Assembly (NCBI GenBank): GCA_012520995.1
Contig: JAAYNI010000046.1
Location: forward strand, 42,650 to 106,649
Origin: Candidatus Rifleibacteriota bacterium
Lineage (GTDB): Bacteria; Muiribacteriota; Ozemobacteria; Ozemobacterales; Ozemobacteraceae
Length of the DNA: 64,000 nucleotides
Reading direction: 5' to 3'
Shown here: one piece after another, positions 6,065 through 61,166 of the stretch
Layout: each line of letters begins with the position of its first letter
Position numbering within the stretch: position 1 is the stretch's first letter
Program-made: the position numbers and the translations under genes
The notes under the pieces: generated by a model
What the model saw: only the letters and a program-made list of their open reading frames with translations
Told to the model about the DNA's origin: nothing
Database searches by the model: none

Positions 6065-6982
6065 ATGCCCAATCCGGAAGATCTTCTGCCGACTCCGGAA
6101 ACAATCAATGGGGAATCTGGAGCCCCTGCCACTCTAAAAACGAGGATTGCCAAACCTGTGAGTCCTCCTGAAAAACCCTCAATGTTTTTCTCACTCATAA
6201 AAAAAATGGCTTTCCTTGTTTTGCTTTTTGTTTTTATACTTTCTATCCTACTATCCTTGCTGACTTTGGATTTCTTGGATATTTTAGTCTTCAGACACAG
6301 CATTCCTGAAAAGTATGCAGAAAAGCCACTTATAAAAAAATATTTAGACTTTGTCAAACTCCACCAACTCCCGGAAGAAGAAAAATATTACCAACTAATA
6401 TATGAGCAAAGAATGAAATATAATCAGCTCATAACTGAAGGCAGCAGAGATCTCAAAAAAAGAGCCGATCTTCTGGAAAGCTCTTACAGAGATTTGATTA
6501 GAGTTCAAAAAAACAAATATTCCAATGAAATGGAAAATTTACGAAAAGCCAGAGAAGAAGCCGAGCTTGAAAAAAGCAAAACTGCCGCTTTGCAAGCTGA
6601 ACTGGACACGCAAAAAGCCAAACTAGAAAGCGCCAAAGCAGCTCTGGCATCAGAAGCCATCAAAATAGAAGCTGCTCTGATTAAATTCATGGAAAAAGAC
6701 AACCGCTTGGATCAAATTTGCAGCATAGCTGCTCAAATGGAGCCGTTGCCATTGGCCAAAATTTTTGACGAGATCTCAGACGATCAGCTTATATATGACA
6801 TATTAGGCGGTTTGGAGCCAGCTCACTCAGCTAAAGTTTTAGCAGGCATGGATAGAGAAAAAGCTGGCAAAATAATGAGAATAGGCGCAATACCTCAAAC
6901 TGTGCCAGGATATGAAGGAGTTGCTCAAGGACAGCTTCCACAAGAACTGCGACAAGCTCTTCAAAATGCGAAAGACATCTAG
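6065..6982 (+). CDS. Membrane-anchored coiled-coil flagellar protein with MgtE_N-like C-terminal domain (YlxF-like)
   Basis: One TM helix (FLVLLFVFILSILLSLL), a long coiled coil, and a C-terminus (QMEPLPLAKIFDEISDDQLIYDILGGLEPAHSAKVLAGMDREKAGKIM) resembling the MgtE N-terminal/FliG-like fold. Its position after fliJ mirrors ylxF in Bacillus-type fla operons. Confidence 0.55.
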   Translation: MPNPEDLLPTPETINGESGAPATLKTRIAKPVSPPEKPSMFFSLIKKMAFLVLLFVFILSILLSLLTLDFLDILVFRHSIPEKYAEKPLIKKYLDFVKLHQLPEEEKYYQLIYEQRMKYNQLITEGSRDLKKRADLLESSYRDLIRVQKNKYSNEMENLRKAREEAELEKSKTAALQAELDTQKAKLESAKAALASEAIKIEAALIKFMEKDNRLDQICSIAAQMEPLPLAKIFDEISDDQLIYDILGGLEPAHSAKVLAGMDREKAGKIMRIGAIPQTVPGYEGVAQGQLPQELRQALQNAKDI

Positions 6983-9526: not shown

Positions 9527-9775
9527 GTTGTTTCCTTTCCAAATCTAGAATGATTCAGATCAATATATTAATTTAATAGCGTTTGGCTGATATGATATCA
9601 CAGTTGCCTATTTCGTCAACAAAGGCATTATTTTTAACCTGTTATTGAAAATCTGGGATTAACGCCTAGCAACATTGATGCAAAGCCAGATAACAAAGAA
9701 AGCATTGCAGAGTTGTATTGTAAATAATGCAAATTTTAGATGTTAAACAGAACTAGCTTATGTTAATCTTCTGCT

Positions 9776-15316: not shown

Positions 15317-15428
15317 TAAATAGCGAGCAGGGAGTTTTAATAATGTAAAGTGTAGAATGTAGAGTGCAAAAACAAATGTTCGGTTTTCTGTTCTTTCTAC
15401 TCCCTACGCTCTAATCCCTACTCCCTGA

Positions 15429-15550
15429 GGCTGTCCGAAAACTCCATTTTTCTCCGATTTTCGAGATTTTTTTCAAACTCACTATTTAAGCCTATTTCAG
15501 AGACTGAGTTTTTTTTGAATTTTAAGTTTTTAGGTAGTTTTCGGACAGTC
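15429..15550. repeat. Inverted repeat (ctgtccgaaaact / agttttcggacag) in the convergent prmA/HD-gene gap
   Basis: 13-bp perfect inverted arms at 15431-15443 and 15536-15548, extendable to about 17 bp with one mismatch (gaggctgtccgaaaact vs agttttcggacagtctc). The arms are about 92 bp apart. Confidence 0.5.
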
Positions 15551-15626
15551 TCCCCTAATTTTAAGCTGTGCTTAAAATCCCGTCTTCGTAATCTGTGAAT
15601 AGAAAAGTTCTAGAGAAAAAGCAGCA

Positions 15627-27478: not shown

Positions 27479-27527
27479 AGTAAAACTCTCCCTTTCAATT
27501 TTACTCCAAAACAACTCCTTTCCGCAA

Positions 27528-27640
27528 TCTAGTGCTGTATTTTGTCTAAAACTTTCTTTTGAAAGACATCTTGCTCAACAATAAATCATAGTTGGCAGCT
27601 ACTAAGATCGCACCGTGGTGAGTGGCAAGTAAGAATCAAC
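27528..27640. repeat. Copy A of a dispersed intergenic element (ctagtgctgt...tctaaaac ... aagatcgcaccgtggtgagtgg)
   Basis: It shares both the 5' block and the 3' block with the elements at 61006-61130 and 49109-49245, with similar spacing between them. Confidence 0.5.
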
Positions 27641-27734
27641 ATTCATAACAGCCCTTCTATCCGCAGATGAGGGCAAAAACTCTTAAAGCAAGCTTAAGAT
27701 AAAACAGACTGCCAGAGGCTTTAGAGCAACTTTC

Positions 27735-41515: not shown

Positions 41516-42634
41516 ATGACAAACCGCAAACCTTCTTCATCCATACCTGGCTGGATTCATCTGCTATTCATTTTAGCGGTTTTTTTTATTCTCCGACAAG
41601 TTTCAACCACCAGCCGTGAAAAACCTCCTAGAAAAGAAACAGCTTATGTCACAATTGACACTTCCGCTTTGCTAAAAGAAACCACCCAGCTGATTACTCC
41701 AGTCAAAAGTTCATCTGTCATACCGACACCTTTCAGCAACTTGATAACCACTGCTCCTGTCAACGACATTTTAATAGAGCCCGACGGAAGCGTCTGGGCA
41801 GCGACAGAAGAAGGTGCAGCAACATATATAAACGGCCATATAACCGAGTATACTTCAGCAGACGGCACCTTCCCTTTTGAACAGGCAACCTCACTCTTGC
41901 TTTCAAAAGATACTCTGTTTGTCTCAGGATTTTACGGGGTAGCTAAAAGAACTAAAAACAAATTTATCACATCAAATATAGACATATCTCTCATTTGGGA
42001 TTCTCTGCAAGATGGGGCTTCCACTTGGTTTTCCACACAAACTGGTCTTTATTTAGTAACAGAAAAAGACGAAAACCCAGTAAAAATAGACAAAGACTCC
42101 ACAAATAACGGGCTGCGATATAATTGGTGCAGAAACCTTCTCAGAACCGGTTCAAAACTTTTTATTATACAAGACTCTTGCCTCAGTATTTGGGAACTTT
42201 CTCTACCCGCTTCCAACCCTAACTCTTGGAAAAGAATCGAATATTCAGACTTAAACATCAACTCCCCTGTCAACTCTGTCGGCTTTGACGGAACGCATCT
42301 ATGGCTAGCAACAAACAGCGGTCTCTTCCGCATTTTACCTCCATTGAATGAGTTCGGCATGCCAATAAAACATTCCGCTGAACTATTTACCACACTTAAC
42401 AACCTGCCCTCCAACAAAATAAATACTGTTCTTGGACACAAAGGCAATCTCTGGGTAGGCACAGAGCAAGGCTTGGCAGTTGTAACCCAAGGCGGCTCTA
42501 TCAAACAAATAGTGCCAGACAAACCCTATAGACCTTTGCCCATCAGAGCGCTAAGCTTTTATGGCGAGATTCTTTGGATAGGCACGGACAGCGGTTTGCA
42601 GTTTATTAACACAGCTATGTTTCAACTCACATGA
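41516..42634 (+). CDS. Membrane-anchored beta-propeller protein with two-component-regulator-propeller-like repeats
   Basis: Recurring LWLATNSGLFRI, LWVGTEQGLAVV, ILWIGTDSGLQFI blades after an N-terminal TM helix. Confidence 0.55.
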   Translation: MTNRKPSSSIPGWIHLLFILAVFFILRQVSTTSREKPPRKETAYVTIDTSALLKETTQLITPVKSSSVIPTPFSNLITTAPVNDILIEPDGSVWAATEEGAATYINGHITEYTSADGTFPFEQATSLLLSKDTLFVSGFYGVAKRTKNKFITSNIDISLIWDSLQDGASTWFSTQTGLYLVTEKDENPVKIDKDSTNNGLRYNWCRNLLRTGSKLFIIQDSCLSIWELSLPASNPNSWKRIEYSDLNINSPVNSVGFDGTHLWLATNSGLFRILPPLNEFGMPIKHSAELFTTLNNLPSNKINTVLGHKGNLWVGTEQGLAVVTQGGSIKQIVPDKPYRPLPIRALSFYGEILWIGTDSGLQFINTAMFQLT

Positions 42635-44868
42635 CAAAAACTCCTGAAATTCAAATAAACTCTCTAAGAGAACAAATAAGACACCACGAATATCTATATT
42701 ATGTAAAATCGGAACCTGTCATATCTGATCAGGACTTCGATTACATGATGAAAGAACTCGAAAAGCTTGAAAGTGAAAATCCGAATCTAATCACTCCAGA
42801 CTCCCCGACTCAAAGAGTCGGAGAAGACAGCACTTCATTTGAGAAAGAAACACACAGAGTTCCAATGCTCAGCATAGACAACTCCTACAACGAGGCTGAA
42901 ATAGCAAACTGGCTGGAAAGATGTGAGAAAACTTTAGGTAAAAACCCTTTTCCGGTTGTAGCCGAATTAAAAATAGATGGTGTCTCAGGCTCTTTCAAAT
43001 ATCAAGAAGGATTACTGCAAACAGCTGTAACAAGAGGAGACGGTCAAACTGGCGATATTATAACAGAAAATGCCAGAACAATACGCAACCTGCCTCTCAA
43101 AATTGCTTCCGACTTTGACATGGATATAAGAGGCGAAATTTATACGCCTTTATCCACCTTCAATCAATGCAATGAAGAAATTATACAAGAAGCGGACAAA
43201 AAACTTGAAGAAAAAGAAATGGAGCTTTCTCAGATCGAAAAACAATTGCAAAGTTCTCTAACTCTTAGCGGTGCTCCTGATCCGCAACTTCAAGAAAAGC
43301 TTGAAAAATATCAAGAAGCATTTGAAAAGCTTAGTCACCAAAAGCCAAAACTTTTCAAAAACAGCAGAAACTTCACCTCAGGCACAATTAAATCATTAAA
43401 GCCAACGACAGTGAGCAAGCGAGGCCTGAGAGTCATGGTATATGGCATAGCTCAAGCTTTTGAACTTGGTTTTGAAACTCACACTCAGGTGATGAACTTC
43501 CTCCACAAAGAGGGCTTCAACATAAATGTGCGATGGAAAACCTGCTCAACATTTGAAGAAATTACGGCTTTTATAAACAACATAAAAAATGAAAAGGCTG
43601 ATTTCGACTTCGACATAGACGGCATTGTCTTGAAAATAGACAATCTGGCCGCTCAACAAGAACTTGGAACCACAGCTAAATCGCCGAGATGGGCATTAGC
43701 CTACAAATATCCTCAGGAAGCTGTAAAAACAAAAATTATAAACGTCAGATGGCAACCTGGCAGAACCAGACTGACCCCCGTAGCAGATCTCGAGCCTGTT
43801 CAAATTGCTGGTACAACTGTTTCAAAAGCCACTCTTCATAATGCGGATTTTATCAAAGAAAAAGACATAAGGCTCGGTGACGTTGTTTTCCTTGAAAAAG
43901 CCGGCTATATAATTCCGCAAATAATAGAACCAATCGTAGAAGAACGCGACGGAACCGAAAAAATAATTGAGCTGCCTACTATTTGCCCACTTTGTTCTAT
44001 GCCTACTGAAATAACTTCTCAACTTAGAAAAGTCTCTTCTTCAGACAAAAATGAAGATGCAGATCCAGACGAAGAAAATTCAGAGCAAGATTCAGATGAA
44101 AACATACTTCCAAGCATGCGTTCATTCACTCTAGTAACCTGCTCAAACCCTGAATGTTTCGGTTTTCTGCTGAACAGAACTCTAAACTTTGTTAAATGTG
44201 CTGAAATAGAGCATTTCGGCATAAAAAGAGTTGAAGGCGCAATAGAAAGTGGATTAATCAACAAGCTTGAAGACATTTTTACTCTGAATGAAACAGATTT
44301 AGCTGCCGTTGACTCTATCAAAGAAAAATCCGCTCAAAAAATAATTGCCAGCATAGCAGAAGCAGCAAAACAGCCTCTTGCCAATATAATTTGTGCCCTT
44401 GGCATACCCAATGTAGGCAAAGTTAGAAGTGCTGAGCTCGCCGATTTGGCAAATAATTCATTAGAAAACTTTTTAAGTTTTACTGAGAAAGATCTTCTTG
44501 AGGAAGAAAAAGAAGAAGCTGTAATAGGAAACAGTGTTCTAGAATTTATCAGAACTCCTTGCAACAAACCCCTGTTTGAGGCAATAGCCAAGTGGTGGAA
44601 AGGCCCGGACAAACAACAAAGTACAGAAGAAAGCAAACTCAAAGGTTTGGAATTTGTTTTTACAGGCTCTGCCACAATGCCTCGCAACAAACTATCAGAA
44701 CTAGCTGTTGCAAACGGCGCAAAAGTGAAATCTTCAACCACCAAACAAACAGACTATTTGGTAATAGGCTCCAATGAACCGCTGGATTATAACTCTTCTA
44801 AAAAGCAAAAAGCCGAAAAGTTCGGAGTGAAAATAATCAATGAATTTGATTTTTTAGCAATGCTCTAA
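42631..44868 (+). CDS. ligA: NAD-dependent DNA ligase
   Basis: Adenylation motif KIDGVSGSF, OB fold, Zn-finger CPLC...CSNPEC, HhH repeats and a C-terminal BRCT domain. At 745 aa it is long because of two insertions. Confidence 0.9.
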   Translation: MTKTPEIQINSLREQIRHHEYLYYVKSEPVISDQDFDYMMKELEKLESENPNLITPDSPTQRVGEDSTSFEKETHRVPMLSIDNSYNEAEIANWLERCEKTLGKNPFPVVAELKIDGVSGSFKYQEGLLQTAVTRGDGQTGDIITENARTIRNLPLKIASDFDMDIRGEIYTPLSTFNQCNEEIIQEADKKLEEKEMELSQIEKQLQSSLTLSGAPDPQLQEKLEKYQEAFEKLSHQKPKLFKNSRNFTSGTIKSLKPTTVSKRGLRVMVYGIAQAFELGFETHTQVMNFLHKEGFNINVRWKTCSTFEEITAFINNIKNEKADFDFDIDGIVLKIDNLAAQQELGTTAKSPRWALAYKYPQEAVKTKIINVRWQPGRTRLTPVADLEPVQIAGTTVSKATLHNADFIKEKDIRLGDVVFLEKAGYIIPQIIEPIVEERDGTEKIIELPTICPLCSMPTEITSQLRKVSSSDKNEDADPDEENSEQDSDENILPSMRSFTLVTCSNPECFGFLLNRTLNFVKCAEIEHFGIKRVEGAIESGLINKLEDIFTLNETDLAAVDSIKEKSAQKIIASIAEAAKQPLANIICALGIPNVGKVRSAELADLANNSLENFLSFTEKDLLEEEKEEAVIGNSVLEFIRTPCNKPLFEAIAKWWKGPDKQQSTEESKLKGLEFVFTGSATMPRNKLSELAVANGAKVKSSTTKQTDYLVIGSNEPLDYNSSKKQKAEKFGVKIINEFDFLAML

Positions 44869-44876
44869 AAGACATT

Positions 44877-44935
44877 GGCGAGTGCTGAGTGACGTGCAAG
44901 AAAGTTTTAGACAAAAACAAAGCACTAGAGTTTTT
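44877..44935. repeat. Partial copy D of the agtgct/agcactag element, terminator-like, just after ligA
   Basis: ggcgagtgctgagtgacgtgc ... caaagcactagag followed by TTTTTC. 6-bp inverted arms agtgct/agcact. Confidence 0.4.
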
Positions 44936-45028
44936 CATTGGCATATCTTGCATTTAAAAGGCTTTTCTTGTATGCTGTATTTGTTTGCAAAAGACAATTG
45001 TTAACTGGTTAAACAAAGGATAGACAGA

Positions 45029-45724
45029 ATGAAAAAACTTCTTAGCTTAACAAATCTGACCGCGTTGTTTGTGTCAGCTTGTTTGTTTGTGTCCGTTTTC
45101 GCCATACCTTCCATGCTTTCAGCACAGGAACCCGAGTATTTTTCTCCCGCTTTATTGCAAAACGCCTATCAGTATTATGCTGAACAACGCTTCGAAGAGG
45201 CTCACAACGAAATACAAAACCTTTTCAACAGAATACCTCCCGCAGGATACAATTACGAAAACGACAACCCTGACGAAGATGAACTAATCTCTGCAGAAGA
45301 ACTCAGGCTCTTTGACATATCAGTTTGCATTTCAGCAGCCTATGACAGCTTCTTCAATATGACGCCTGAAGCTCTTTGGATAACCAGAGCTGTTGAAGAA
45401 ACAGCCAAGCTCCAAGATGAAGCAACAACCGAAGAAATCATGGCTCTCCTTGACACAGCTAATGCGGTTTCCATGATTTGCAGCATGTATCAAAATGAAG
45501 ACTATGGCGATGTCCTAGACGCTATTCTTGAAACAGAAAAAGAAGCCGCACCCACGGATCACGAGTTTTTCATGTTTGAAATTAAAGCTCTAATCTCATG
45601 CGGTGAAAAACTGCTCAACCGAGACCTGATCAATCAAGCTCATTCTCTCTACAAGTTTGCCGTTGATGAAATGAAGCTTGAAGATTATAAAATGGCTCGT
45701 CTCAAAAAGATTCTCGGATATTGA
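45029..45724 (+). CDS. Secreted hypothetical protein
   Basis: Signal peptide MKKLLSLTNLTALFVSACLFVSVFAIPSMLSA. Confidence 0.45.
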   Translation: MKKLLSLTNLTALFVSACLFVSVFAIPSMLSAQEPEYFSPALLQNAYQYYAEQRFEEAHNEIQNLFNRIPPAGYNYENDNPDEDELISAEELRLFDISVCISAAYDSFFNMTPEALWITRAVEETAKLQDEATTEEIMALLDTANAVSMICSMYQNEDYGDVLDAILETEKEAAPTDHEFFMFEIKALISCGEKLLNRDLINQAHSLYKFAVDEMKLEDYKMARLKKILGY

Positions 45725-46491
45725 GCCTCAGATATAATCCTCAATCTTACGAGAAACAGCTCTCAAAATCAGGACTTCTCTCTGACAATAGTGCAGAGAC
45801 CCTTTCCGAAGACCTCAACATCAGAGTACAACAGCTGCTCGGAAAACCTGGGTTCAAGATTCCTAACCCTATAAAAAACTTCACAAATCTTGAACCTCAG
45901 GTTTTTAAAGAGTACGGCAGCGATGCCGTAAGACTCGCGTTGCTTACAGACCATGATAATCCCGAGAGCCTCTATGACTCCGCATATAACAGGCTCAGCC
46001 ATTGGTTTTCTCTTCTCAATATCGAGCAAAAAGCAGCTGAACAAGAGACAGATCTTGAAACAAGCTTCTTGCTCACCGCCCTCATGAGACTTGAAGAACA
46101 AATACTAGAAAGAAACAAACCCCACGCTGTGATTTCAATGGCTGCGAACTTCTTTAACCGACATAAAACCTTGAGCCTCTCTTACAGAACCAGAAAACTT
46201 CTGGGAACCTTGCTTTATCCTTTTGTGCCTGTTTTCGCAATTTCAGAGCTTCTTGATTCTTCCGCTGTGCCTGTTATTAACGAAATATATGATTTTTTTC
46301 CTGAATATCTCTTCACAGAATATAAAATAGAGAAAAGCTCTTGGCAAAAAATAGCTATAAAAAACGACCCGGCCGCTGGTAAAAGCTTTGAAAAAAGTTT
46401 ACTGGACTTGCCAAGACTTCAACCCTTGAGGAAAAATGGCGAGATATTATTTAAAACTACCCAAAGAGGTATCTTGATATGCCTCGCCTGA
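45721..46491 (+). CDS. Hypothetical protein
   Basis: ORF overlaps its neighbours by 4 nt and 13 nt. No recognisable motif. Confidence 0.4.
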   Translation: MSLRYNPQSYEKQLSKSGLLSDNSAETLSEDLNIRVQQLLGKPGFKIPNPIKNFTNLEPQVFKEYGSDAVRLALLTDHDNPESLYDSAYNRLSHWFSLLNIEQKAAEQETDLETSFLLTALMRLEEQILERNKPHAVISMAANFFNRHKTLSLSYRTRKLLGTLLYPFVPVFAISELLDSSAVPVINEIYDFFPEYLFTEYKIEKSSWQKIAIKNDPAAGKSFEKSLLDLPRLQPLRKNGEILFKTTQRGILICLA

Positions 46492-46916
46492 ATTCACAAA
46501 ACTGCAAGCATTTGCGTATTCTTATTTCCTTAGTATTAGCCTTAGGAGCTTTACATCTTTTTATGAAGCCTCCAGTTACACAAGCAAAAGATATTTTCAA
46601 AGAGAGTCTGCAAAAGCTTGATGTAACAATATACAAACAAGGAAAAAAAATTGCGGTACAATCTGTAACTCAGTCTTACCAAACAGCCTCGCCCGAACTA
46701 ATCACTTTTAATGACGCAACCTATTCGGAATTAACAGCCTGTAAATATATTTCTCCTGCAATAGCCGATCAGATCATAAAAGAACGAAAGAAACGTCCTT
46801 TTGATGATTGGGATGATTTTTCAAAAAGAATCAAAGGCATGGGAAAAGAAAAAATCTCATACTATAAAACAATAGGTCTAAAAATAAACAGAGAGCAAAA
46901 ACTTGAGACCCCCTAA
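46479..46916 (+). CDS. comEA: ComEA-like helix-hairpin-helix DNA-binding protein
   Basis: Signal/TM segment plus C-terminal ...ITFNDATYSELTACKYISPAIADQIIKERKKRPFDDWDDFSKRIKGMGKEKI, which resembles the ComEA HhH domain. It directly precedes comEC. Confidence 0.5.
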   Translation: MPRLNSQNCKHLRILISLVLALGALHLFMKPPVTQAKDIFKESLQKLDVTIYKQGKKIAVQSVTQSYQTASPELITFNDATYSELTACKYISPAIADQIIKERKKRPFDDWDDFSKRIKGMGKEKISYYKTIGLKINREQKLETP

Positions 46917-49077
46917 GAATGTTGTCAAAACCCTGAAACTCGACACTGTGACTCTCTTCACAGCTCTTTTTATTTCAGGCCTCCTTGTATCTTCAATTTT
47001 CCCTACTGAGTATGCCCTCCTCTGGCTTGCAGCTTCAATTCTTTGCTTTGCGGCATCTTTCAAAGCAAAGAATAAAAAAGCTTTAATATCTTTGCTTGCT
47101 GCAGCTGCCATTTTAGCCTCCATGTTTTATGCTGCAGTCAAATTTACTCCAAGCTTAGCCACAAAAGATCTTCAAACCCTTGAGGGAACAAAAGGGGAAA
47201 TCACAGGCATATTTTCAGGTTCCATAAAAAAGCTGAAGGACGGCTCATGCTCATTTCTTTTACGTGAATCCTATTACAGAACAGGTGAAAGGCTCTTAAG
47301 TCTTCCTATGCCAATAAGATGTAAAGCTCCAGCATCTGCCTGCCACATAGTTTCAGACAGTAAAGTCACCTTAACAGGCTATATGGAGGCATTGCCAAAG
47401 AGCAACCGAGTCCGTTTTGAAGCTGAAAATTGCAAGCTGGGAGAAAAAATTATAAAGTCCCATGTTTTCGCCTATTTTGATACACTTAGAAACAAAATAA
47501 TCACAAAGCTTCAGAGCATTTTAAAACCCGAACATGCTTCTTTCATATCTGCCATAATATTTGGCGAAACTTCATTTTTGGAAAACAACGAACTCTATCG
47601 CAAAACGGGAATCACTCATTTAATGGCTGTCTCTGGTCAACATTTAATGATCTTGGCTTTATTTTTGACTGCGATTCTCTACAAAACAGGAGTTCCCCCT
47701 CTTTCCAGAATCATATTCGTATCTGTATGCCTCTTGTTTTATGCGTTATTAACGGCAGGTTCACCATCGGTTTGGAGAGCCTTGCTCATGTATGTTTTCG
47801 TAGCCTTGACAGCCTATTTGGATGCGGAACACGTGCCAACCAGAGCAATTTCAATAGCCGCCCTGCTTATTTTGCTTTATAACCCTGCAAATCTGTACAG
47901 CCCTGCCTTTGTGCTCAGCTTCATAGCAGTGTTGTCTATAATATTTTTAAGAAAGCCTCTTGAAAAACTATTTTCCAAGCTCCGCCTGCCCCAATCAGTC
48001 AACCGATACTTGGCTGCGAGTACTGCCGCAAACATAGGCACTTTACCAGCTTCAGCCTGTTTATTTGGCTCGCTGCCCATTTCAGGTCTCATTGTAAACC
48101 CGCTTATTCTCTGGATATTTGCATATATATTCCCAATGTCTTTTACAATAGCCATTCTAGCTCTTATATCGCCAGAATTCGCCTTAAAATTCGTTCCCTT
48201 TCTCTCACTTGTCTTAGATGGAGTGACAATATTTTTGGAGTTTTTTGAAAAAAACTTGGGTCTATATTTTGAGTTCAACAAAATCTCTCCCTTCATAGCC
48301 TCCTTGCTGTATGCGATATTATTTGCCGCTGCAGCTTATTTCAACAGAAAAGAAGCAGAAACAGCAAAAGAAACTGCCAACTCTCTTGAAACAATCCGAA
48401 AAAAACGTTCTCAGCGACAAAGACAAAATCGTATTGAACAAGAGACTCAAAGTGAAAAAGAAGAACCAAAAGCTATAAAAGTCCCTCCTAAAAGGAAAGC
48501 CTTGGAAAACAGAAATTTATTGCGCGAAATAGATAATAGACTGATGCAACTTCCAAGACTTCCTGTTAAAGGCTCAGAATTGAAAATACATCCTAAGCTT
48601 GATCCAAAGCTCCTTCAAATAAACGCACAAAACCTTTACCATCGTGTCATGGAAGCTGACTCAAAACTATACATGGAAAGTCCTGACAGACTTTTAGAAT
48701 CTTGCACATCTCTTTTAGGAATAGTTTCCATGGAACTTCTTTCAAGAGTTTCGAGACTTTCCTCCAAGCCCAATTTTTCTCCATCTGATATAAAAATTAA
48801 GTTTCGCGTGGAACACAGAGAATTAGCTATGGCAGCAATTACTGACAGCATATTGGCTCCAGCCTTCATAATAGAAGTTCCTGACGAAAAATTTAAAATA
48901 ATGCTCTCAGAACTCCAAGGATTGTTCAATAAAGCAAGCGACCTTCTTGAAGGCCTTCTCTCGCCAACAGATTTATCAAAACTCCAAAAAGATTATGAAC
49001 TGCTGCGCAGCGAGCTTTTTTCTTGGTGCAGCGACTTTATAACTCTAGATCTGAATCAAAAACACAAAAAACCTTAA
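46903..49077 (+). CDS. comEC: ComEC/Rec2-family DNA-uptake channel protein lacking the metallo-beta-lactamase domain
   Basis: Competence-domain signature TGITHLMAVSGQHLMILALFL and a multi-TM core. The C-terminal ~240 aa are charged and helical, with no HxHxDH motif. The only start codon I see is the TTG at 46903, which is uncertain. Confidence 0.7.
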   Translation: MRPPKNVVKTLKLDTVTLFTALFISGLLVSSIFPTEYALLWLAASILCFAASFKAKNKKALISLLAAAAILASMFYAAVKFTPSLATKDLQTLEGTKGEITGIFSGSIKKLKDGSCSFLLRESYYRTGERLLSLPMPIRCKAPASACHIVSDSKVTLTGYMEALPKSNRVRFEAENCKLGEKIIKSHVFAYFDTLRNKIITKLQSILKPEHASFISAIIFGETSFLENNELYRKTGITHLMAVSGQHLMILALFLTAILYKTGVPPLSRIIFVSVCLLFYALLTAGSPSVWRALLMYVFVALTAYLDAEHVPTRAISIAALLILLYNPANLYSPAFVLSFIAVLSIIFLRKPLEKLFSKLRLPQSVNRYLAASTAANIGTLPASACLFGSLPISGLIVNPLILWIFAYIFPMSFTIAILALISPEFALKFVPFLSLVLDGVTIFLEFFEKNLGLYFEFNKISPFIASLLYAILFAAAAYFNRKEAETAKETANSLETIRKKRSQRQRQNRIEQETQSEKEEPKAIKVPPKRKALENRNLLREIDNRLMQLPRLPVKGSELKIHPKLDPKLLQINAQNLYHRVMEADSKLYMESPDRLLESCTSLLGIVSMELLSRVSRLSSKPNFSPSDIKIKFRVEHRELAMAAITDSILAPAFIIEVPDEKFKIMLSELQGLFNKASDLLEGLLSPTDLSKLQKDYELLRSELFSWCSDFITLDLNQKHKKP

Positions 49078-49108
49078 TAATAAAATCTCCATGTTTCACA
49101 TGAAACCA

Positions 49109-49245
49109 CTAGTGCTGTGTAGCATCTAAATGTTTATTGTCGGACAGATTTTTTTCTATCCACAGATGGACACAGATAGGATTTTTAAGCTAGCTTAAAA
49201 ATCAGTGCTGGGTGGTGAGTGACGAGTTGAATTATTTAGATTCAA
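49109..49245. repeat. Copy C of the dispersed intergenic element (ctagtgctgtgtagcatctaaa ... gtgagtgacgagttgaatt)
   Basis: Matches element B (61006-61130) at both blocks with similar spacing, and shares the 5' block with element A. Confidence 0.5.
49180..49203. promoter_or_regulatory. Perfect 24-bp palindrome gatttttaagctagcttaaaaatc upstream of the second pilin operon
   Basis: Self-complementary over all 24 nt. It lies about 230 nt upstream of the 49431 start codon. Confidence 0.5.
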
Positions 49246-49430
49246 ACACTAAAACTGACAACTGCTTTAAGATGCTAATAAATAGTCGAAACTTTAAGAT
49301 TTGAAAAATAGAGAACAACCTTGATGCAACTTTAATATACCAGACAGCAACAGAAAAGGCGGTTCACTTGCCCCCATTTTCCTTCTCATGTTAAAGTCTA
49401 TAGGCGACTTAATACATTTGGAAATTTAAC

Positions 49431-49889
49431 ATGATATCTCGTATAAAAAATGCCTATACTCTTCCAGAGCTTCTGATTACTGTTTTGCTGCTGGCAATAC
49501 TGCTATCCTTGGGCATTGTTTTTTCCTCAATAATGGCAAAAGGGCAAAAAAACAAGAGTTATGCAGTCGCTCTAGCTTTTGCTCAGCAAGCCATAGAGTT
49601 GGCAAGAGGCGCTCCCTTTGAAATCTTAAGTTCATCTGATGCTGGTGAAGCCAGTGTTGAATATGATCTGAATAACAAATCCAGCGACAATGATTTGCTT
49701 ATTCCTACTTTAGAAAACGGTGAAGCTGTTTATACCAGAACAGTGAAAATAAGAGACATAAAAACAAAAGATGACCCTGACAGTAACGCTGGCTTGAAAC
49801 ATATCAGCGTAAAAGTTGAATGGATCTCCCCTGAAAATAACAAGCCTGATACTCTTGAAATTAACTCGCTGATAGCCAATATCAACTAA
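49431..49889 (+). CDS. Prepilin-type pseudopilin/minor pilin
   Basis: N-terminus MISRIKNAYTLPELLITVLLLAILLSLGIV. Confidence 0.65.
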   Translation: MISRIKNAYTLPELLITVLLLAILLSLGIVFSSIMAKGQKNKSYAVALAFAQQAIELARGAPFEILSSSDAGEASVEYDLNNKSSDNDLLIPTLENGEAVYTRTVKIRDIKTKDDPDSNAGLKHISVKVEWISPENNKPDTLEINSLIANIN

Positions 49890-49890
49890 T

Positions 49891-50640
49891 ATGTACAAAA
49901 GTTTCAACAAAAACCTATCGGAAAAAAGAGCCTTCACTCTAACAGAGATGTTATTGGCCTTAGCTCTCACCGCAATGGTTTTAGCAGCCGCTTACAAAGT
50001 TTTTATTGAACAACAAAAACTGGTGAAATTTTCGGTTGAAACCGTTCATGCAAATGAATCTTTCAGAAAAGTGACCTTCTTTATGGGAGAAGACATAAAG
50101 AAAGCCACCCGCATAGTCAGACCTACGCCAGTTCCATTGGCCTCCGCTTCCGAGCTGATAACAAAAGTCGGCACTATTATGACCGTACAGACTTCCGAGA
50201 TAGATCCAAGAATCAAATTTGACAGTTCTCTTGGCACGCAGATTGCCAAGAGAACTCACATTGACTACGAGCTGGAACTTATGCCAAACTTCAATGAAGA
50301 TTCCGAAGAAGTGCCCGTTTACAGACTAATACGAAATGCCGTTCTCGACGAGGAAGACGGAACCCATTCAGGACAAAGACAAGTGATAGCGGAAAACATA
50401 CAAGATCTTATAATCTACAGAACTGTTCGCGAGCCATTCAAAATTCATTCACTCTCAGAACCTTCAGATCGCATGATTGAGCCTAGAAGTCTAAGCGAAA
50501 CAGGAACAGGCAATAATATAATACACGTAAAAATGGCTATCGAGCGTGACAGATATAAAAAAGAAAAGGGCTCGGTTTACTCGGTTACTATGGAAACCTC
50601 CTTTTACAAACGCGGAAAAGAGATATTCCTGAACCCATGA
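49891..50640 (+). CDS. Prepilin-type minor pilin (PilW/GspJ-like)
   Basis: N-terminus ...KRAFTLTEMLLALALTAMVLAAAYKVF. Confidence 0.6.
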   Translation: MYKSFNKNLSEKRAFTLTEMLLALALTAMVLAAAYKVFIEQQKLVKFSVETVHANESFRKVTFFMGEDIKKATRIVRPTPVPLASASELITKVGTIMTVQTSEIDPRIKFDSSLGTQIAKRTHIDYELELMPNFNEDSEEVPVYRLIRNAVLDEEDGTHSGQRQVIAENIQDLIIYRTVREPFKIHSLSEPSDRMIEPRSLSETGTGNNIIHVKMAIERDRYKKEKGSVYSVTMETSFYKRGKEIFLNP

Positions 50641-52886
50641 AAAATTTGCTGAATTCAAAAAGAGGATACGGAATTATCATTGTCATTCTTTTCATGACAG
50701 TGATGTTTGTATTGTTCGCCGTTTATTTTAAGATGCAAAGCGCTCATTCCTTTTTATATTCCAAGCATGTCAGACGCTCAGTCGCTTCAAACCTTGCGGA
50801 AGGCGTTTTAAACTGCATTATTGCCGAACTGGATGCTAACAGAACATTCGCCACTCACTGGAACTACGACGCAAAAGACACATACACTTTCAAAAGCCCT
50901 GTAAAAAGCCGTGAAACATCCTTGGGGCCTATACCAAACTTTAAAATTGGAGGAGTAAAAAACGGAATTTACTATGGAAGCAGCGACTATGGCACTTTTA
51001 AAGCAAAGTTCGCCCCTTGCTTCGGAGGCTTCGAAAACCCAAAAACCAAAACTCTTTCTGAAAGCAGCATGTACACAAAAGCCGAGATAGCAGTTAAAAC
51101 TGAGGCTGGAAAAACCTCAAAAGATGAGCCTGTCTGCATCAAACTTTCAGCTATTCTCGAAAGACGATTCCCTTCGGCAGAACATGCTCTATATGACGGA
51201 GAAGTATTAGACATAGGCGCTTTGGGTCCATATAACAGCAGCCCCAACGAAATTCGCAGAGCAAGACTTTACGGACATCACTCCATTTTCTTCACTTCAA
51301 AAGGCGCAGGCGATCATGGAACAGAGCTTTTCGAAATTGAAAAAATCGAAACTCCAGGAATGATAAGAGTTACATCAGATACAGATGTCAAATTTTCTGA
51401 CAACACCTCTACTGTGCTGTGCCCTGAAAACGACTCTTTGAACATAACCGCCTTCAACTCTTTTGAAGGCTATCTGATAGACGGCACACATGGAGCTCAC
51501 TCTATAAAACTGAATCGCATTCCTAAAGAGAGATTGCTGAATTACGTGCAAACATATAAGAAAAGCTCTGGAGTTTACATAGACAGTTCGACTTTGCCAG
51601 AATCTGAATATAGAAATCCTTATGATCCTCAAACAAAGTATTACGATCTTGACTTCGGCGAATACAGATTAACAAGCGAGGGCGAAAAACTCGGAAGCGA
51701 CGATCCAAAATGTATAAAAGAAAAAAACGGAGAAAAAATTGTTGTTTATTCAAAAGTTCCCTTAAGAATATGGGGCTCTCCCGACAAAAGCATAACCATC
51801 TACAGCGAAAAAGATATTGTTATAGCCGGTGATTACAACCAAAAGCATTCGACAAGACAAGTATATAAGGACAACCGATATTTAGACTATGCTACAAGAA
51901 TTTACAACGGGAAATACAACCATAAAGTAGGCTCTCTGATAATGACCGAAGGAAGAATAATCATAGACTATTCTGATCCTTCTCTATTTGCAAAAAACGA
52001 AATAAAGCCATATTTTCTTTGGAAACTTGCTGAAAGCATGAATCCCTATTCCCAGAAAATAGCCGGCGAAATCAAAACCGCCCTAGCTCCTCCAGATCCC
52101 TCTGAGAGAACAGCTATTTTCGGAGTTGAAGAAAACATAGACGCTACAGGCAAACTTATACCCAGACTTGGCACCATAGCGTTTCTCTACAACTTTCCTG
52201 AAGTTGATGAAGGCGGCAGCTATAATGCAAACATGGAAGACCTCATAGCATTTTTCACTCCAGGAACTCCAAAATCCATATTCCCTATAAAAAATACACA
52301 GGGTCGCGAAGAGCTTATAGAAATAATTAAGGATGCTTGCAGAACAAACGGCGATTTGACGCTAGCAGAGCAAGATGAAATATTCAACTTTGCTTGGCAA
52401 AAAGCTCTAGAAGACCGTAAAGAAGCTCCTGACGAAAAATGTGCAATAATGGAGATAATTCCCCATCTCTTTAAGGATGCCGCCAAAGACCACAGGGACG
52501 GTCTATTTATACCGGAAATGACAATAAACTCTTTCCTGATCAGTTCAGAAAAACGTTCCTCAATCTGGAGACAAGGCAATAATTCCAACAAGGCCATGGA
52601 TGAAATAGGCAACGTCGGAGATAAGAAATATATTAAACCGCCAGGATTTATAATACTTAGAATTTACGGCGGATATGCTCGTATAGGACGAAAAGAACCT
52701 TCATATTTTATTTCAGGAGAACATACCACAAAAACAGGAGTTCTCAGACGCATAGTCTGGGACAATACTAACCTGACAAATCAAGACTATCGCCCATTAG
52801 AGCAGCCTGTTACCCACAACGTGCTGACAATAAGCGAAACTTTAATAACAGAAAAAGAATATGAAGAGTTTAGCGGCAAAGAATAA
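50637..52886 (+). CDS. Large pilus-associated protein (PilX/PilY1-like position), N-terminally membrane-anchored
   Basis: 749 aa. N-terminal TM GIIIVILFMTVMFVLFAVYF; overlaps the upstream pilin stop. No recognisable catalytic motif. Confidence 0.45.
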   Translation: MKNLLNSKRGYGIIIVILFMTVMFVLFAVYFKMQSAHSFLYSKHVRRSVASNLAEGVLNCIIAELDANRTFATHWNYDAKDTYTFKSPVKSRETSLGPIPNFKIGGVKNGIYYGSSDYGTFKAKFAPCFGGFENPKTKTLSESSMYTKAEIAVKTEAGKTSKDEPVCIKLSAILERRFPSAEHALYDGEVLDIGALGPYNSSPNEIRRARLYGHHSIFFTSKGAGDHGTELFEIEKIETPGMIRVTSDTDVKFSDNTSTVLCPENDSLNITAFNSFEGYLIDGTHGAHSIKLNRIPKERLLNYVQTYKKSSGVYIDSSTLPESEYRNPYDPQTKYYDLDFGEYRLTSEGEKLGSDDPKCIKEKNGEKIVVYSKVPLRIWGSPDKSITIYSEKDIVIAGDYNQKHSTRQVYKDNRYLDYATRIYNGKYNHKVGSLIMTEGRIIIDYSDPSLFAKNEIKPYFLWKLAESMNPYSQKIAGEIKTALAPPDPSERTAIFGVEENIDATGKLIPRLGTIAFLYNFPEVDEGGSYNANMEDLIAFFTPGTPKSIFPIKNTQGREELIEIIKDACRTNGDLTLAEQDEIFNFAWQKALEDRKEAPDEKCAIMEIIPHLFKDAAKDHRDGLFIPEMTINSFLISSEKRSSIWRQGNNSNKAMDEIGNVGDKKYIKPPGFIILRIYGGYARIGRKEPSYFISGEHTTKTGVLRRIVWDNTNLTNQDYRPLEQPVTHNVLTISETLITEKEYEEFSGKE

Positions 52887-55743: not shown

Positions 55744-58365
55744 ATGAAAAGAAAAATTTTTATTCTGCTTCTTTTGCTTTTGATATTGCCCCCCTTTTTT
55801 ACACCTTATAAAGCTCATGCAACATCAGAGCAAAATCCCGTAGAGATTATTGGCACATGGAATCTGATCAACAAAAAAGAATATCATGACACTGAAATTC
55901 TTCAGGTATTGCCTACTCGCGACGGAAAGATAAACACTCTTTCAATTGATCAAAATGGAACCTTTGTAAATACTCGTTACGAAGAAAGTCGCCTTAACTT
56001 TAACAAACAAGGGCAAAAACTCCCTCAATACGAAATGAAAGATGGGGGCACAACTAGAACAGTAAATTCTTGGACTTGCAGCGGCAACCTTTTGAAATTG
56101 AAAAACCGAGGCGACTGGTATTATGAACTAAAAGACAATAATCTCTGGCTGAAAGATCGTGCTGAAAATGCAAGAGTAATACGTGTGTTCAGCAAAACAA
56201 AACAACCTTCGCCATTGCCTGGCGATCTTCTTCTGGGAACATGGCATATGACTCAGCTGAAAGAGTATCATGATTCTGAACCTCTTCAGGTATGGCCTAA
56301 CCAAGCAGGAGAAACAAACACTCTGCAAATAAATAAAGACGGAACTCATACTACCATAAACTATCAAAAAGAGCGTCTTAATTTTGAGCGACATGGTTAT
56401 AACTTGCCACAATATGAAATAAAAACTGGAGATACAGTAACCCAAAAAGAAGGTCACTGCAAAGCTTACAATAACTCTGTCTTGTGGCTGGAAGGACAAG
56501 ATGCTTGGGCATACAAACTTAAAAACGACAATCAGGAATTGTGGCTCCAAGATCGTGCCGACAAACCAAATACAATATATGTTTACTCTAAAACTCCGCC
56601 GAAAAGCACCTTACCCTCTACGGAGCTTATAGGCACTTGGCATATAATCAAACAAAAAGAGTATCATGATTCTGAACCTCTTCAGGTATGGCCTAACCAA
56701 TCAGAAAAAACTCATACTCTGGTAATCAATAAAGACGGAACCCACTCAAGAACTGATTATGAACAATATCGTCTCAATTTCAACAACTATGGTCATGAGT
56801 TGTCACAATATCAAATAAAGGATGGAGGCACAGCAGTCCAAAAAGAAGGCTACGCTAAATCCTATTATGACAATGTTTTATGGCTGGAAGGCAAAGACAA
56901 CTGCACATACGAATTAAAAAACGACAATCAGGAGTTGTGGCTGAAAAACCGTGTCAAAGATGCCAATACAATATATATTTACAGCAAGAAGTCGCCACAA
57001 AACACCTTGCCGACTGCTGATTTGACAGGCACTTGGCACATGATTCAGCTTAAAGAGTATCATGATTCTGAACCCTTCAAGATATGGCCTACCGAAGACG
57101 GAAAAAACAACACTCTAATTATTAATAAAGACGGAACTCATACTACCATAAACTATCAAAAAGAGCGTCTTAATCTCAGCCGCTACGGTTATGAGCAATT
57201 ACAATACCAAATAAAGAATGAAGTCTCAGAAAAGAAGGAAGGATACGCTAAATCTTATTACGGCGATGTTTTGCGATTAGAGAATCAGGAAGACTGGTAT
57301 TACGAACTTAAAGGCAACGAATTATACCTTAAGAATCGCCTTAAAGATGCCAATACAATACGTATTTACAGCAAAACTCCTCCACAAAGCCCTTTACCGC
57401 AAGCATCTCTCATTGGCACATGGAATATCTATAAGATAAAATGGCATGACAGCGATCTGCATAGGGTAACACCACACGAAGATGGAAATAGAGACAGCAT
57501 AACTATTGATGCAAAAGGAACCCACTCAAGCGCTACTTATAACCACAGCCGCCGCCAATTTGCAAACGAAGAAAAAACATATACAACACACGGCGATCCG
57601 AAAAAACGCTCAGGTTTCTGCAGATCATATTTTGGAAATGTTCTAATACTTGAAAATATGGGAACCTTCAGTTATGAAGTTAATGACAATGAACTGAGCC
57701 TTAAGGATCTCCCAACAGACCCTCGAAGCATTGACCTTTACAAAAAAGTTTCTTCACCGAAAACCCCAGCAGAGGGCACAGCCGTTGCAACAAAACCTGT
57801 CACCTCTGACACAAAAGTTTCAGGAGCAACTCAAGAAGCAAAGACTGGAGCTACCAGCACAAAAACTTCAGGAACAACCCAAGGAACAAAGACTGAAACT
57901 GCTGGCACAAAAACTTCAGGAACAACTCAAGAAGCAAAGACCGGAGCTACTGGCAAAAAAACTACAGATTCAGCTCAAGAAGCAAAAACTGGAGCTGCCG
58001 GCACAAAAACTACAGGTTCAACCCAAGAAACAAAGACTGGAACTACTGGCACAAAAGCTTCGGGAACAACCCAAGGAACAAAGACGACCTCGCCCACACA
58101 AAAGACGCAAACATACGATGAAGCATATGACACAGATATACCGCCTTTTCCTGCAAATCTGCCTGTTCCAACAGAAGAAGATGACTATGAATTTATGCAG
58201 GTTTATCTAGATTACGTAACAACGCATAAAGAATACACAATTCTTAAAGCTTCAGCTAAAGAACTCGGCGTCCGCATACCTCCAGGCAAACTTGAACAAG
58301 CGCTGGACGCTTATCGGAAGGCATATAACAGATATAAAAATATGGCTCTCACCAGGAAGAAGTGA
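55744..58365 (+). CDS. Large secreted protein: 5 tandem ~130-aa GTW-motif domains + Thr/Gly/Lys-rich 13-aa repeats + conserved C-terminal YRKAYNxY motif
   Basis: AGAGGA ribosome-binding site; signal peptide. Five repeats each begin L(I/L/T)GTW(N/H)...KEYHDSEPLQVWP, then TSGTTQEAKTGAT-type repeats, then a C-terminal ...QALDAYRKAYNRYKNMAL. Confidence 0.7.
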   Translation: MKRKIFILLLLLLILPPFFTPYKAHATSEQNPVEIIGTWNLINKKEYHDTEILQVLPTRDGKINTLSIDQNGTFVNTRYEESRLNFNKQGQKLPQYEMKDGGTTRTVNSWTCSGNLLKLKNRGDWYYELKDNNLWLKDRAENARVIRVFSKTKQPSPLPGDLLLGTWHMTQLKEYHDSEPLQVWPNQAGETNTLQINKDGTHTTINYQKERLNFERHGYNLPQYEIKTGDTVTQKEGHCKAYNNSVLWLEGQDAWAYKLKNDNQELWLQDRADKPNTIYVYSKTPPKSTLPSTELIGTWHIIKQKEYHDSEPLQVWPNQSEKTHTLVINKDGTHSRTDYEQYRLNFNNYGHELSQYQIKDGGTAVQKEGYAKSYYDNVLWLEGKDNCTYELKNDNQELWLKNRVKDANTIYIYSKKSPQNTLPTADLTGTWHMIQLKEYHDSEPFKIWPTEDGKNNTLIINKDGTHTTINYQKERLNLSRYGYEQLQYQIKNEVSEKKEGYAKSYYGDVLRLENQEDWYYELKGNELYLKNRLKDANTIRIYSKTPPQSPLPQASLIGTWNIYKIKWHDSDLHRVTPHEDGNRDSITIDAKGTHSSATYNHSRRQFANEEKTYTTHGDPKKRSGFCRSYFGNVLILENMGTFSYEVNDNELSLKDLPTDPRSIDLYKKVSSPKTPAEGTAVATKPVTSDTKVSGATQEAKTGATSTKTSGTTQGTKTETAGTKTSGTTQEAKTGATGKKTTDSAQEAKTGAAGTKTTGSTQETKTGTTGTKASGTTQGTKTTSPTQKTQTYDEAYDTDIPPFPANLPVPTEEDDYEFMQVYLDYVTTHKEYTILKASAKELGVRIPPGKLEQALDAYRKAYNRYKNMALTRKK
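55846..57790 (+). repeat. Five in-frame tandem coding repeats, period about 384-396 nt
   Basis: The GTW codon triplets recur at 55852, 56236, 56632, 57028 and 57415. Repeats 2-4 share long near-identical DNA stretches, for example aaagagtatcatgattctgaacctcttcaggtatggcctaaccaa. Confidence 0.8.
57780..58110 (+). repeat. About 39-nt (13-aa) tandem repeats encoding a Thr/Gly/Lys-rich linker
   Basis: Repeating acaaaaacttcaggaacaac(c/t)caag(g/a)a(a/g)caaagac(t/c)gga... units, about 7-8 copies. Confidence 0.75.
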
Positions 58366-58409
58366 TGTATGCGGAAAACTGATGCAATATAGAATATAGA
58401 GTATAAAAA

Positions 58410-58445
58410 AACATCGCAGTTATTAAACTGCGATGTTTTTTTATT
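58410..58445. terminator. Bidirectional rho-independent terminator between convergent genes
   Basis: aaaaaaacatcgcagt-tattaa-actgcgatgttttttt: an 11-bp stem flanked by an A-run on one side and a T-run on the other. Confidence 0.65.
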
Positions 58446-58533
58446 CTGTTATTTGATTATCAAAAGAATTCAAGGCGATTTTTCTATCCAAGCAAGGGAG
58501 TTAGGCCTTATGCACTAATCCATACGCCCTAAA

Positions 58534-60535: not shown

Positions 60536-61009
60536 ATGATTGAAATAGAAAGAAAATTTTTAACAAAAAATTCTGATTGGAAAAATTTAATTTCCTATTC
60601 CCAAAGTTTAAAACAAGCTTATTTGCTTTCGTCGAAGGAAATAACACTGCGAGTTCGCACAATAAATCAAAGCGAAGCTTTTCTAACCATAAAAGGCAAA
60701 AACTTAAATTCAGGTTTAAGCAGAGAAGAATTTGAATATTCCATTCCTTTCGCCGAAGCCGAAGAAATGATTAAAAGTTTTTGCAGAGGTAAGACAATAG
60801 CAAAAACACGCTATATTTGCTTTTTTGAGGGAAAAAGGTGGGAAATAGACGAGTTTGAAGGGGAACTGGCTGGCTTGACCATAGCAGAAATAGAACTTGA
60901 AAACGAAAACGAAATCTTTGCCAAACCTAATTGGATAGGAAAAGAAGTCACAGGCGACCCAGCTTACTATAATGCTGTCCTCTGGAAAAAAATCAATAAC
61001 AATGCCTAG
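60536..61009 (+). CDS. CYTH-domain protein (triphosphate tunnel metalloenzyme / CyaB-like)
   Basis: N-terminal EIERKFL signature plus the characteristic alternating acidic/basic beta-strand residues (RVR, KGK, EFE, EIDEFEGE, EIELE). Confidence 0.75.
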   Translation: MIEIERKFLTKNSDWKNLISYSQSLKQAYLLSSKEITLRVRTINQSEAFLTIKGKNLNSGLSREEFEYSIPFAEAEEMIKSFCRGKTIAKTRYICFFEGKRWEIDEFEGELAGLTIAEIELENENEIFAKPNWIGKEVTGDPAYYNAVLWKKINNNA

Positions 61010-61166
61010 TGCTTTGTAACATCTAAAAATTTCCTGTTAGCCTTTCAAAATTCACAAGACAATATCCACTTATAAGATCGCACCGTGATGAGTGGTGCGT
61101 GGCGAGTGACGAGTTGAATTGTTTAAAACGGCTTAAAAGGAAGTTGAAGCTGAAACGAAGCACTAG
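61006..61166. repeat. Copy B of the dispersed intergenic element, with inverted termini ctagtgct / agcactag embedding both convergent stop codons
   Basis: 5' block cctagtgctttgtaacatctaaaaat, core aagatcgcaccgtgatgagtgg...ggcgagtgacgagttgaatt, 3' end gaagcactag. The CYTH stop TAG sits at 61007-61009 and the rsmG stop (reverse-complement TAG) at 61163-61165. Confidence 0.55.

Follow-up and report, generated by a model that had tools for sequence, protein, structure and literature searches.

Several described families of short bacterial repeats bear on the element considered here. Bacterial MITEs include the Correia elements of Neisseria, RUP of the pneumococcus and Nezha of cyanobacteria, while the cyanobacterial STRR sequences are intergenic direct repeats of heptamers. 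A REP unit is a short (20-40 bp) extragenic palindrome with many dispersed copies. REP and BIME sequences carry a conserved GTAG or CGTC tetranucleotide as a tag at one end of the stem, and they are mobilized by RAYT transposases (PMC3733652). In Beggiatoaceae, TAACTGA also forms intergenic heptamer direct repeats (PMC4679880). Finally, the BOX elements of the pneumococcus, with the arrangement boxA-boxB(n)-boxC, were first noticed beside competence genes and proposed to be regulatory, and later proved to be a dispersed family, copies of which can modulate neighboring genes as a side effect (PMC3049150). Here, we describe a perfect palindrome that lies between a competence gene and a pilin-like operon in a Riflebacteria genome, and argue that it is probably the stem-loop of a dispersed, modular intergenic repeat of the MITE/REP/BOX-like kind, its place ahead of the pilin-like genes being incidental.

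The palindrome was found in a 64-kb window, by which we mean the whole stretch of DNA that was analyzed (64,000 nucleotides). Rereading the letters at 49180-49203 confirms the original prediction that GATTTTTAAGCTAGCTTAAAAATC is exactly self-complementary over its 24 bp. It is the sole even perfect palindrome in the window with arms of at least 12 nt, and the longest there. Base composition leads one to expect 0.005 palindromes with such arms per 64 kb, and 12-nt arms were reached in 2 of 300 block shuffles, which together argue that the 24-bp palindrome is not a product of chance at the scale of the window. No second match to the 24-mer with three or fewer mismatches occurs in the window. The palindrome lies inside the 353-bp gap between comEC and the pilin-like operon, beginning 102 bp past the comEC stop codon, and the distance from its end to the ATG of the operon is 227 bp, in agreement with the earlier figure of about 230 bp. 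It had also been placed inside a repeat element, and its flanks indeed recur at 61088-61125, 15559-15606 (minus strand), 27655-27697 and 44848-44894; the first, second and fourth of these stretches, which were found by a sensitive self-comparison of the gap, lie in other intergenic regions of the window. The features discussed below are collected in Table 1.

Table 1. Positions of the palindrome, its modules, related elements and neighboring genes. Coordinates are those of the 64-kb window; entries such as L024:9648 are positions in further loci.
Feature	Position	Strand	Evidence or remark
Palindrome, stem-loop of the core module (10-bp stem, CTAG loop)	49180..49203	.	GATTTTTAAGCTAGCTTAAAAATC; folds, palindrome scan
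Box part of the core module, TTTTCTATCCACAGATGGACACAGATAG	49152..49179	+	box sequence recurs in aligned copies
5' module M1, CTAGTGCTGTGTAGCATCTAAATGTTTATTGTCGGACAGATTT	49109..49151	+	recurs at L024:9648, L017:3662, L022:1435, L018:5983, L026:12423
G-rich heptamer-like tail after the hairpin, AGTGCTGGGTGGTGAGTGACG	49204..49224	+	GTGNCGA units here; GTAGGGN runs in other copies
3' module M3, GAGTGACGAGTTGAATTATTTAGATTCAAACACTAAAACTGACAACTGCTTTAAGATGCTA...	49215..49285	+	recurs in both orientations: L024:9830-9771 (90% identity), L026, L017, L015, L016, window 61104
Second core copy, T4/A4, ACA center	15553..15606	-	21 nt past the stop codon of an HD-domain gene, between convergent genes
Third core copy, degenerate, 4 perfect pairs left in the hairpin	27654..27701	+	96 bp upstream of glmM
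126-bp segment with 15-17-nt inverted ends, GAGACTGTCCGAAAACT...AGTTTTCGGACAGCCTC	15430..15555	.	divides the second copy: hairpin versus GTAGGG tail
Related mosaic element, no palindrome	61003..61135	+	both ends common to 49109-49285, interior differs; 85% identity to L022:1130-1244
comEC, upstream neighbor (context)	46903..49077	+	Pfam Competence, E = 1.2e-44
Three-gene pilin-like operon (152, 249 and 749 aa), downstream neighbor (context)	49431..52886	+	249-aa protein with N_methyl

The genes around the palindrome (42631-52886) make up a competence-type neighborhood that comprises ligA, two unknown genes, comEA (HHH_3), comEC and the pilin-like operon. The NCBI name of the 152-aa product, whose gene starts at 49431, is prepilin-type protein, from a Candidatus Riflebacteria MAG, and exact-protein matches of the comEC-pilin locus come from biogas-fermenter metagenomes. 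Unlike its neighbors, this first pilin-like gene has no obvious Shine-Dalgarno sequence, and the N-terminus of its product, MISRIKNAYTLPELL (region 49431-49475), has A instead of the usual G before the mature N-terminus. Perhaps the start codon or the processing of this gene product is atypical.

The repeat unit is larger than the palindrome. The 14-mer TTCTATCCACAGAT occurs with at most one mismatch at three places in the window (49154, 15591 on the minus strand, and 27655), and at each of them a TTAAGC..GCTTAA palindrome follows 15-17 nt further on. Because box and palindrome occur together at all three places, the unit is best taken as box plus hairpin, a core module of ~52 nt that consists of the TTCTATCCACAGAT box, ~15 nt and the hairpin. 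The box part holds two CACAGAT repeats 10 bp apart (49161-49167 and 49171-49177), with a third repeat, as GACAGAT, at 49143-49149. The box sequence TTCTATYCRCAGAT is invariant or nearly so across 14 aligned copies.

Further copies come from JGI metagenome contigs, over which the pattern TTCTATYCRCAGAT-N12-22-AAGC-N1-4-GCTTAA was scanned. The scan returned 15 loci from two digester samples, which reduce to 12 distinct sites; one locus (L020), 98.9% identical to the window over 2.4 kb, is the window's third copy, so that 11 sites are new. The contigs were assigned to the same organism via this one near-identical contig, their composition and the shared repeats. Loci of at least 7 kb correlate with the tetranucleotide signature of the window at r = 0.89-0.96, as compared with 0.97 between the two halves of the window and 0.51-0.61 for unrelated controls. 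With an HMM of the core, 18 full copies were found at distinct sites in 179 kb of non-redundant sequence, three of them within the 64-kb window and four of them missed by the strict pattern. The identical 24-mer is present at three other sites (L016:12633, L018:5894 and L019:5501), and a 23-nt T4/A4 form, GATTTTAAGC-NNN-GCTTAAAATC, at nine. Counting only copies that were not used for sequence selection (three in the 64-kb window and four in ~115 kb of loci), the density is ~1 copy per 20-30 kb, which, if extrapolated, would put the total at roughly a hundred copies per genome or above. In a species-representative genome collection, the module pattern matched once, in the flavobacterium Christiangramia aestuarii (L010); by our own estimate about one match is expected by chance, and we treat it as such.

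The original prediction had proposed a search for recurrences of the half-site. Such recurrences exist, yet they belong to the repeat family, and the genes behind them are not related to one another: the matches lie nearly all inside repeat copies, with none elsewhere in the 64-kb window. The exceptions are a solo 12-nt match at L015:6215, ~130 nt from the L015 copy, and shorter matches at L015:8232 and L017:7587. DNA uptake sequences (DUS/USS) are short motifs over-represented throughout a genome, inside genes too, at about 1 per kb; given the near confinement of the half-sites to repeat copies, we rejected this class for the palindrome.

Where do the copies lie? All 18 are intergenic, and they occur in either orientation. 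Gaps between co-directional genes hold six copies in the sense and five in the antisense orientation, four copies lie between convergent genes, one (the window's third copy) lies in a divergent gap, and two have no called 5' neighbor. The neighboring genes include housekeeping genes such as those for a class A penicillin-binding protein (PBP), rpoN, dnaG, glutaminase, a type III glutamine synthetase and phosphofructokinase (PFK), as well as a fabH-like gene, a YitT-family membrane protein, a methyltransferase, a tRNA, anti-sigma-type proteins and others, and they are functionally unrelated. No pilus or competence gene was found beside the copies outside the window. Two of the three copies in the window lie upstream of operons with pilin-like genes, since glmM heads the operon in which the first two pilin-like genes lie. 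This coincidence weakly favors a regulatory link, and it is the one observation on the copies' surroundings that does.

A regulatory link is implied by the original prediction, which had suggested a binding site for a dimeric regulator; on this reading, the regulator would control the second pilin-like (or competence) operon. A perfect dyad with 11-12-bp half-sites at this distance from the operon is what such an operator might look like, the degenerate core copy ahead of glmM would supply a second instance, and the arms are conserved in a strain variant of the locus. However, the same 24-mer and its module are found in either orientation next to genes that have nothing in common. At least 15 further copies have such neighbors, 4 copies lie between convergent genes, and the palindrome is always accompanied by the box and tail modules. 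For an operator one would look for fixed half-site spacing and related downstream genes; the centers are instead 2 or 3 nt long, and both half-site spacing and arm length vary between subfamilies (see below). The copy before the first pilin operon, moreover, has lost its dyad, with 4 perfect pairs remaining. A transcription-factor operator specific to these genes is thus scarcely credible, and the genomic distribution of the copies has largely refuted it already.

The orthologous loci point the same way. Homologs of the first pilin-like gene in the protein database share 45-52% identity with it, and there are no closer ones. The operons of these relatives (L011, L013 and L014) are conserved, but lpxK stands upstream in place of comEC, and the linkage of comEC to the pilin operon is lineage-specific. 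No similar palindrome or box is present upstream of the three operons, which is a weak test of the operator at 45-52% identity and with lpxK upstream. The original prediction had named two observations that together would count against it, absence of the palindrome from orthologous promoter regions and failure of the half-site to recur; the first is what we find, in relatives too distant for strong footprinting.

If the dyad is not kept as an operator, is it kept as a hairpin? As a single strand, the 24-nt palindrome folds into a 10-bp stem with a 4-nt loop (-8.3 kcal/mol as RNA, -6.6 kcal/mol as DNA, z = -4.5). The alternative offered in the original prediction, a strong hairpin, is therefore right in that the hairpin forms and its stem is conserved, but it is an AT-rich hairpin of modest strength. 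Two subfamilies can be distinguished, one with T5/A5 arms and a TA center and the other with T4/A4 arms and an ATA center. They differ by a matched T/A change that preserves the 10-bp stem, leaving arms of 11 or 10 nt around centers of 2 or 3 nt, and as RNA the folds of the two are worth -8.3 (T5/A5) and -9.9 kcal/mol (T4/A4). The centers seen are TA, CA, ATA, ACA, GGA and ATG, of which CA belongs to a same-species strain variant of the comEC-pilin locus whose arms are intact. Intact arms are seen in 15 of 19 entries, counting the 18 sites and that strain variant, and changes are concentrated in the center, with 5 of 47 positions changed there and 5 of 374 in the arms (Fisher p = 0.002). In the L017 copy, a G stands opposite a T in the stem, an opposition that RNA would accommodate as G-U.

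Since both the spacing of the half-sites and the length of the arms vary, a hairpin fits these data better than does a dimer site on double-stranded DNA. The case for the hairpin comes down to a single matched indel, a single G-T pair and the difference in variability between center and arms, and it does not amount to strong covariation evidence: the copies share ancestry, so that the matched indel may be a single event, and the arms are almost invariant, which makes pair counts uninformative.

A hairpin near the end of a gene might act at the level of RNA, as has been proposed for REP sequences. In the present case, it would stabilize the 3' end of the upstream message against 3'-exonucleases, or else act between comEC and the pilin genes as an attenuator or a weak terminator. 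Nine copies in the sense orientation begin 18-75 nt past a stop codon, the L016 copy, likewise sense, comes immediately after a tRNA gene with its terminator, and all 4 copies in convergent gaps are nearest to the gene for which they are sense. The potential G-U pair in L017 and the greater variability of the center fit an RNA role as well. On the other hand, five copies are antisense in co-directional gaps, the stability is a modest -8 to -10 kcal/mol, and with only 2-3 G-C pairs and no U-tract on either strand the structure is not a canonical intrinsic terminator. While such a role is compatible with a mobile repeat, we consider it unlikely to be what the palindrome is for.

The core at the comEC-pilin locus is embedded in a larger structure. 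Around it extends a composite of ~177 bp (49109-49285) whose terminal inverted repeats are imperfect, in that the end of module M3 is an imperfect inverted copy of the start of module M1 (arms 49120-49130 and 49267-49277, 11 nt, 91% complementary). In the predicted RNA fold of 49110-49285 (176 nt), the inverted ends close the structure and the palindrome forms a central arm (z = -3.0 versus shuffles). The modules are not bound to one another: M1 is present in some copies of the family only, M1, M3 and a type-Y element recur independently and in both orientations, and the core is also found without the terminal modules. Ends of the M1-related form CTAGTGCT..TCTAAA are located in the window at 61003 and 27527 and, on the minus strand, at 44930 and 9760, and L017, L022, L024 and L027 contain larger composites that are bounded by CTAG...TCTAAA modules in inverted orientation. 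The second core copy is interrupted between its hairpin and its tail by the 126-bp segment listed in Table 1, with AGGG on either side of it. No further copy of the segment was found in the 179 kb. A second small element has probably inserted itself here, nested within the copy.

The repeats also leave a trace in assemblies. Logan short-read contigs from several samples start in or just past the element, two of them (L005 and L008) at window position 49250, one (L009) at 49146 and one (L006) at 49341, as expected if a multi-copy repeat interrupts the assembly graphs.

Other repeated sequences share the intergenic regions. Further mosaic modules, with CTAGTGCTNTGT..TCTAAA ends, TAAGATCGCACCGTGRTGAGTGG or GAGTGACGAGTTGAATTGTTTA, are present in at least five more intergenic regions of the window, among them 61003-61135, 27527-27640 and, on the minus strand, 44869-44930 and 9735-9760, and some of them begin at the stop codon of the upstream gene. 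Heptamer arrays of AATGTAG (three units), CTACTCC (four) and AATATAG (three) occupy intergenic positions 15342-15363, 15397-15426 and 58386-58405, and runs of GTAGGGN or GTGNCGA follow the hairpin in L016, L017, L021, L022, L024 and L028. Outside the core, three CRCAGAT units at 9-10 bp spacing (e.g., CCGCAGATGACGCAGATGGCCGCAGATAAAG) are found at L023:~300-340, L019:~6390-6430 and L029:~6620-6660; these runs are iteron-like, and may be protein-binding arrays. An 873-aa open reading frame at 55744-58365, which has no Pfam match, is itself repetitive, with a 396-bp unit present 2.5 times (56242-57220) and a 48-bp unit 5.8 times (57806-58085), and probably encodes a repetitive surface protein. 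Between this gene and the convergent gene at 58534-60516 lies a 48-nt inverted repeat (58400-58447, 87.5% complementary) flanked by A and T runs, which looks like a bidirectional terminator.

How did the copies come to be where they are? That the copies form a family, that they are dispersed, intergenic and modular, and that their stem is conserved is supported directly; mobility and a mode of copying are what we infer. On this view, the repeat would be a non-autonomous mobile element of the MITE/REP-like kind that relied for its spread on a transposase encoded elsewhere, and the copy at 49109-49285 would have come to lie between comEC and the pilin-like operon by chance. The stem-loop probably persists either because it is recognized in single-stranded DNA during copying or because RNA can tolerate, or even use, such a structure in its untranslated regions. 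Recent copying, along with a need for the hairpin in that process or else its tolerance in transcripts, would most likely explain why the stem has been conserved. If pilin expression is affected at all, this would be a side effect of insertion, as with the pneumococcal BOX.

Direct signs of movement were sought at several levels. Same-species variants at the comEC-pilin locus retain the element, and strain variants at the two loci compared (comEC-pilin and HD-prmA) all carry elements, with no empty site or presence/absence polymorphism among them. CTAG stands at both ends of composites, and target-site duplications are indistinguishable from these CTAG ends. Neither a cognate transposase nor a RAYT gene was seen in the 179 kb examined. 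One gene that lies between two inverted copies, as in a REPtron (L019:5615-6220), encodes a SAM methyltransferase and not a RAYT. The only insertion sequence found in the 179 kb belongs to the IS3 family, and its ends are unrelated to the repeat, so that it was set aside as a parent element. Its two copies (L022:3441-4790 and L029:1-715), with an HTH_Tnp_1 orfA and an rve orfB, are 88% identical over 717 bp.

Two other readings start from the conservation of the core and give it a function in the cell. E. coli BIMEs carry IHF or gyrase sites, and the core might similarly be bound, at its dispersed positions, by some abundant DNA-binding protein (e.g., a nucleoid-associated protein, gyrase or a domesticated transposase) that would recognize the 10-bp-phased CACAGAT boxes and the hairpin or cruciform. 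CRCAGAT repeats at 9-10 bp spacing do occur both in the core and in the flanks of the other copies mentioned above (L023, L019 and L029), and in the 14 aligned copies no part of the module other than the arms varies less than the box. This reading is compatible with mobility, but it is purely inferential, the phasing is seen in few copies, and recent copying would explain the conservation equally well; we regard it as very doubtful. By analogy with the pneumococcus, one can also imagine that the family is more than selfish DNA and forms a genome-wide functional system peculiar to Riflebacteria. The core, with its helically phased CACAGAT boxes and its conserved hairpin followed by heptamer runs, would then be what a dedicated protein recognizes (a domesticated transposase, for instance, or a factor of the nucleoid or of RNA processing), and the comEC-pilin copy would tune the expression of DNA uptake as BOX tunes competence. 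This broader proposal seems to us distinctly improbable. We return, then, to the mobile, MITE/REP/BOX-like repeat as the preferred account.

The element was also compared with other classes of sequence. A canonical intrinsic terminator was rejected on the composition of the stem and the lack of a T-run on either strand, and a consensus scan makes no call there. No match to Rfam 15 at the gathering score was found in the window, and within 49050-49440 only chance-level hits occur (E >= 0.15, far below the cut-offs). Searches of phage and plasmid collections and a scan of viral contigs gave no match to the repeat. For a sigma-54 or sigma-70 promoter at the palindrome, inspection by eye shows no GG-N10-GC spacing, and a consensus scan of the gap finds no promoter. 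The 11-2-11 layout resembles that of serine-invertase sites; however, no partner inverted repeat flanks a segment as an invertible promoter or recombinase crossover site would require, and the contig breaks are explained by the repeats. With a 23-24-bp palindromic unit that is extragenic and occupies 18 distinct sites in 179 kb, the family has the general character of a REP, but a classical REP was rejected, as the foot of the stem has neither GTAG nor CGTC, the flanking letters being ATAG/GACG+G on the 5' side and AG(T/G)G on the 3' side. GTAG is found in some tails only, at least 7 nt 3' of the stem, and both its position and its orientation are wrong for a REP. Membership among the MITEs is plausible, though incomplete, in view of the size, the non-coding nature, the inverted ends and the dispersal of the composite.

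A literature search found no description of such repeats in Riflebacteria. Since that search found none and there is no match to a curated family, we conclude that this is a previously undescribed repeat family in Riflebacteria, of a well-known kind of element. Its recognition removes a tempting false lead, namely an operator-like perfect palindrome ahead of competence and pilus genes, and it documents modular, hairpin-bearing intergenic repeats in a candidate phylum that is known from metagenomes only. Such repeats break short-read assemblies and can mislead motif-based prediction of regulons; they may also serve as markers for strain typing or as handles for finding their transposase. The biological stakes are modest unless the elements affect expression.

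How does the family relate to the systems described at the outset? With REP and BIME sequences (PMC3733652) it shares a high copy number of extragenic palindromes, mostly in untranslated regions, complementary changes in the stems of subfamilies, mosaic composites and probable transcription; it differs in having an AT-rich rather than a GC-rich stem, and its copies are single, whereas those of REP and BIME form head-to-head or tail-to-tail dimers. The composite resembles bacterial MITEs in its length of ~177 bp, its non-coding nature, its imperfect terminal inverted repeats with an end-closed fold, its dispersed intergenic copies and the apparent nested insertion in the second copy. Unusually for a simple MITE, the core module also occurs without the terminal modules. 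The tails after the hairpin, which are short heptamer-like runs (GTAGGGN, GTGNCGA), and the further arrays in the window recall STRR and the TAACTGA repeats of Beggiatoaceae (PMC4679880); the unit sequences differ, the arrays here are short (3-5 units), and their tie to a hairpin module is specific to this genome.

The closest analogy is with the BOX element of Streptococcus pneumoniae, a likeness of architecture. Both are short, modular, MITE-like intergenic repeats with stem-loops, in which the modules are combined in variable ways. The two belong to different phyla, and the Riflebacteria repeat is set apart from BOX by its single AT-rich 10-bp hairpin, its CACAGAT box and its heptamer-like tails.
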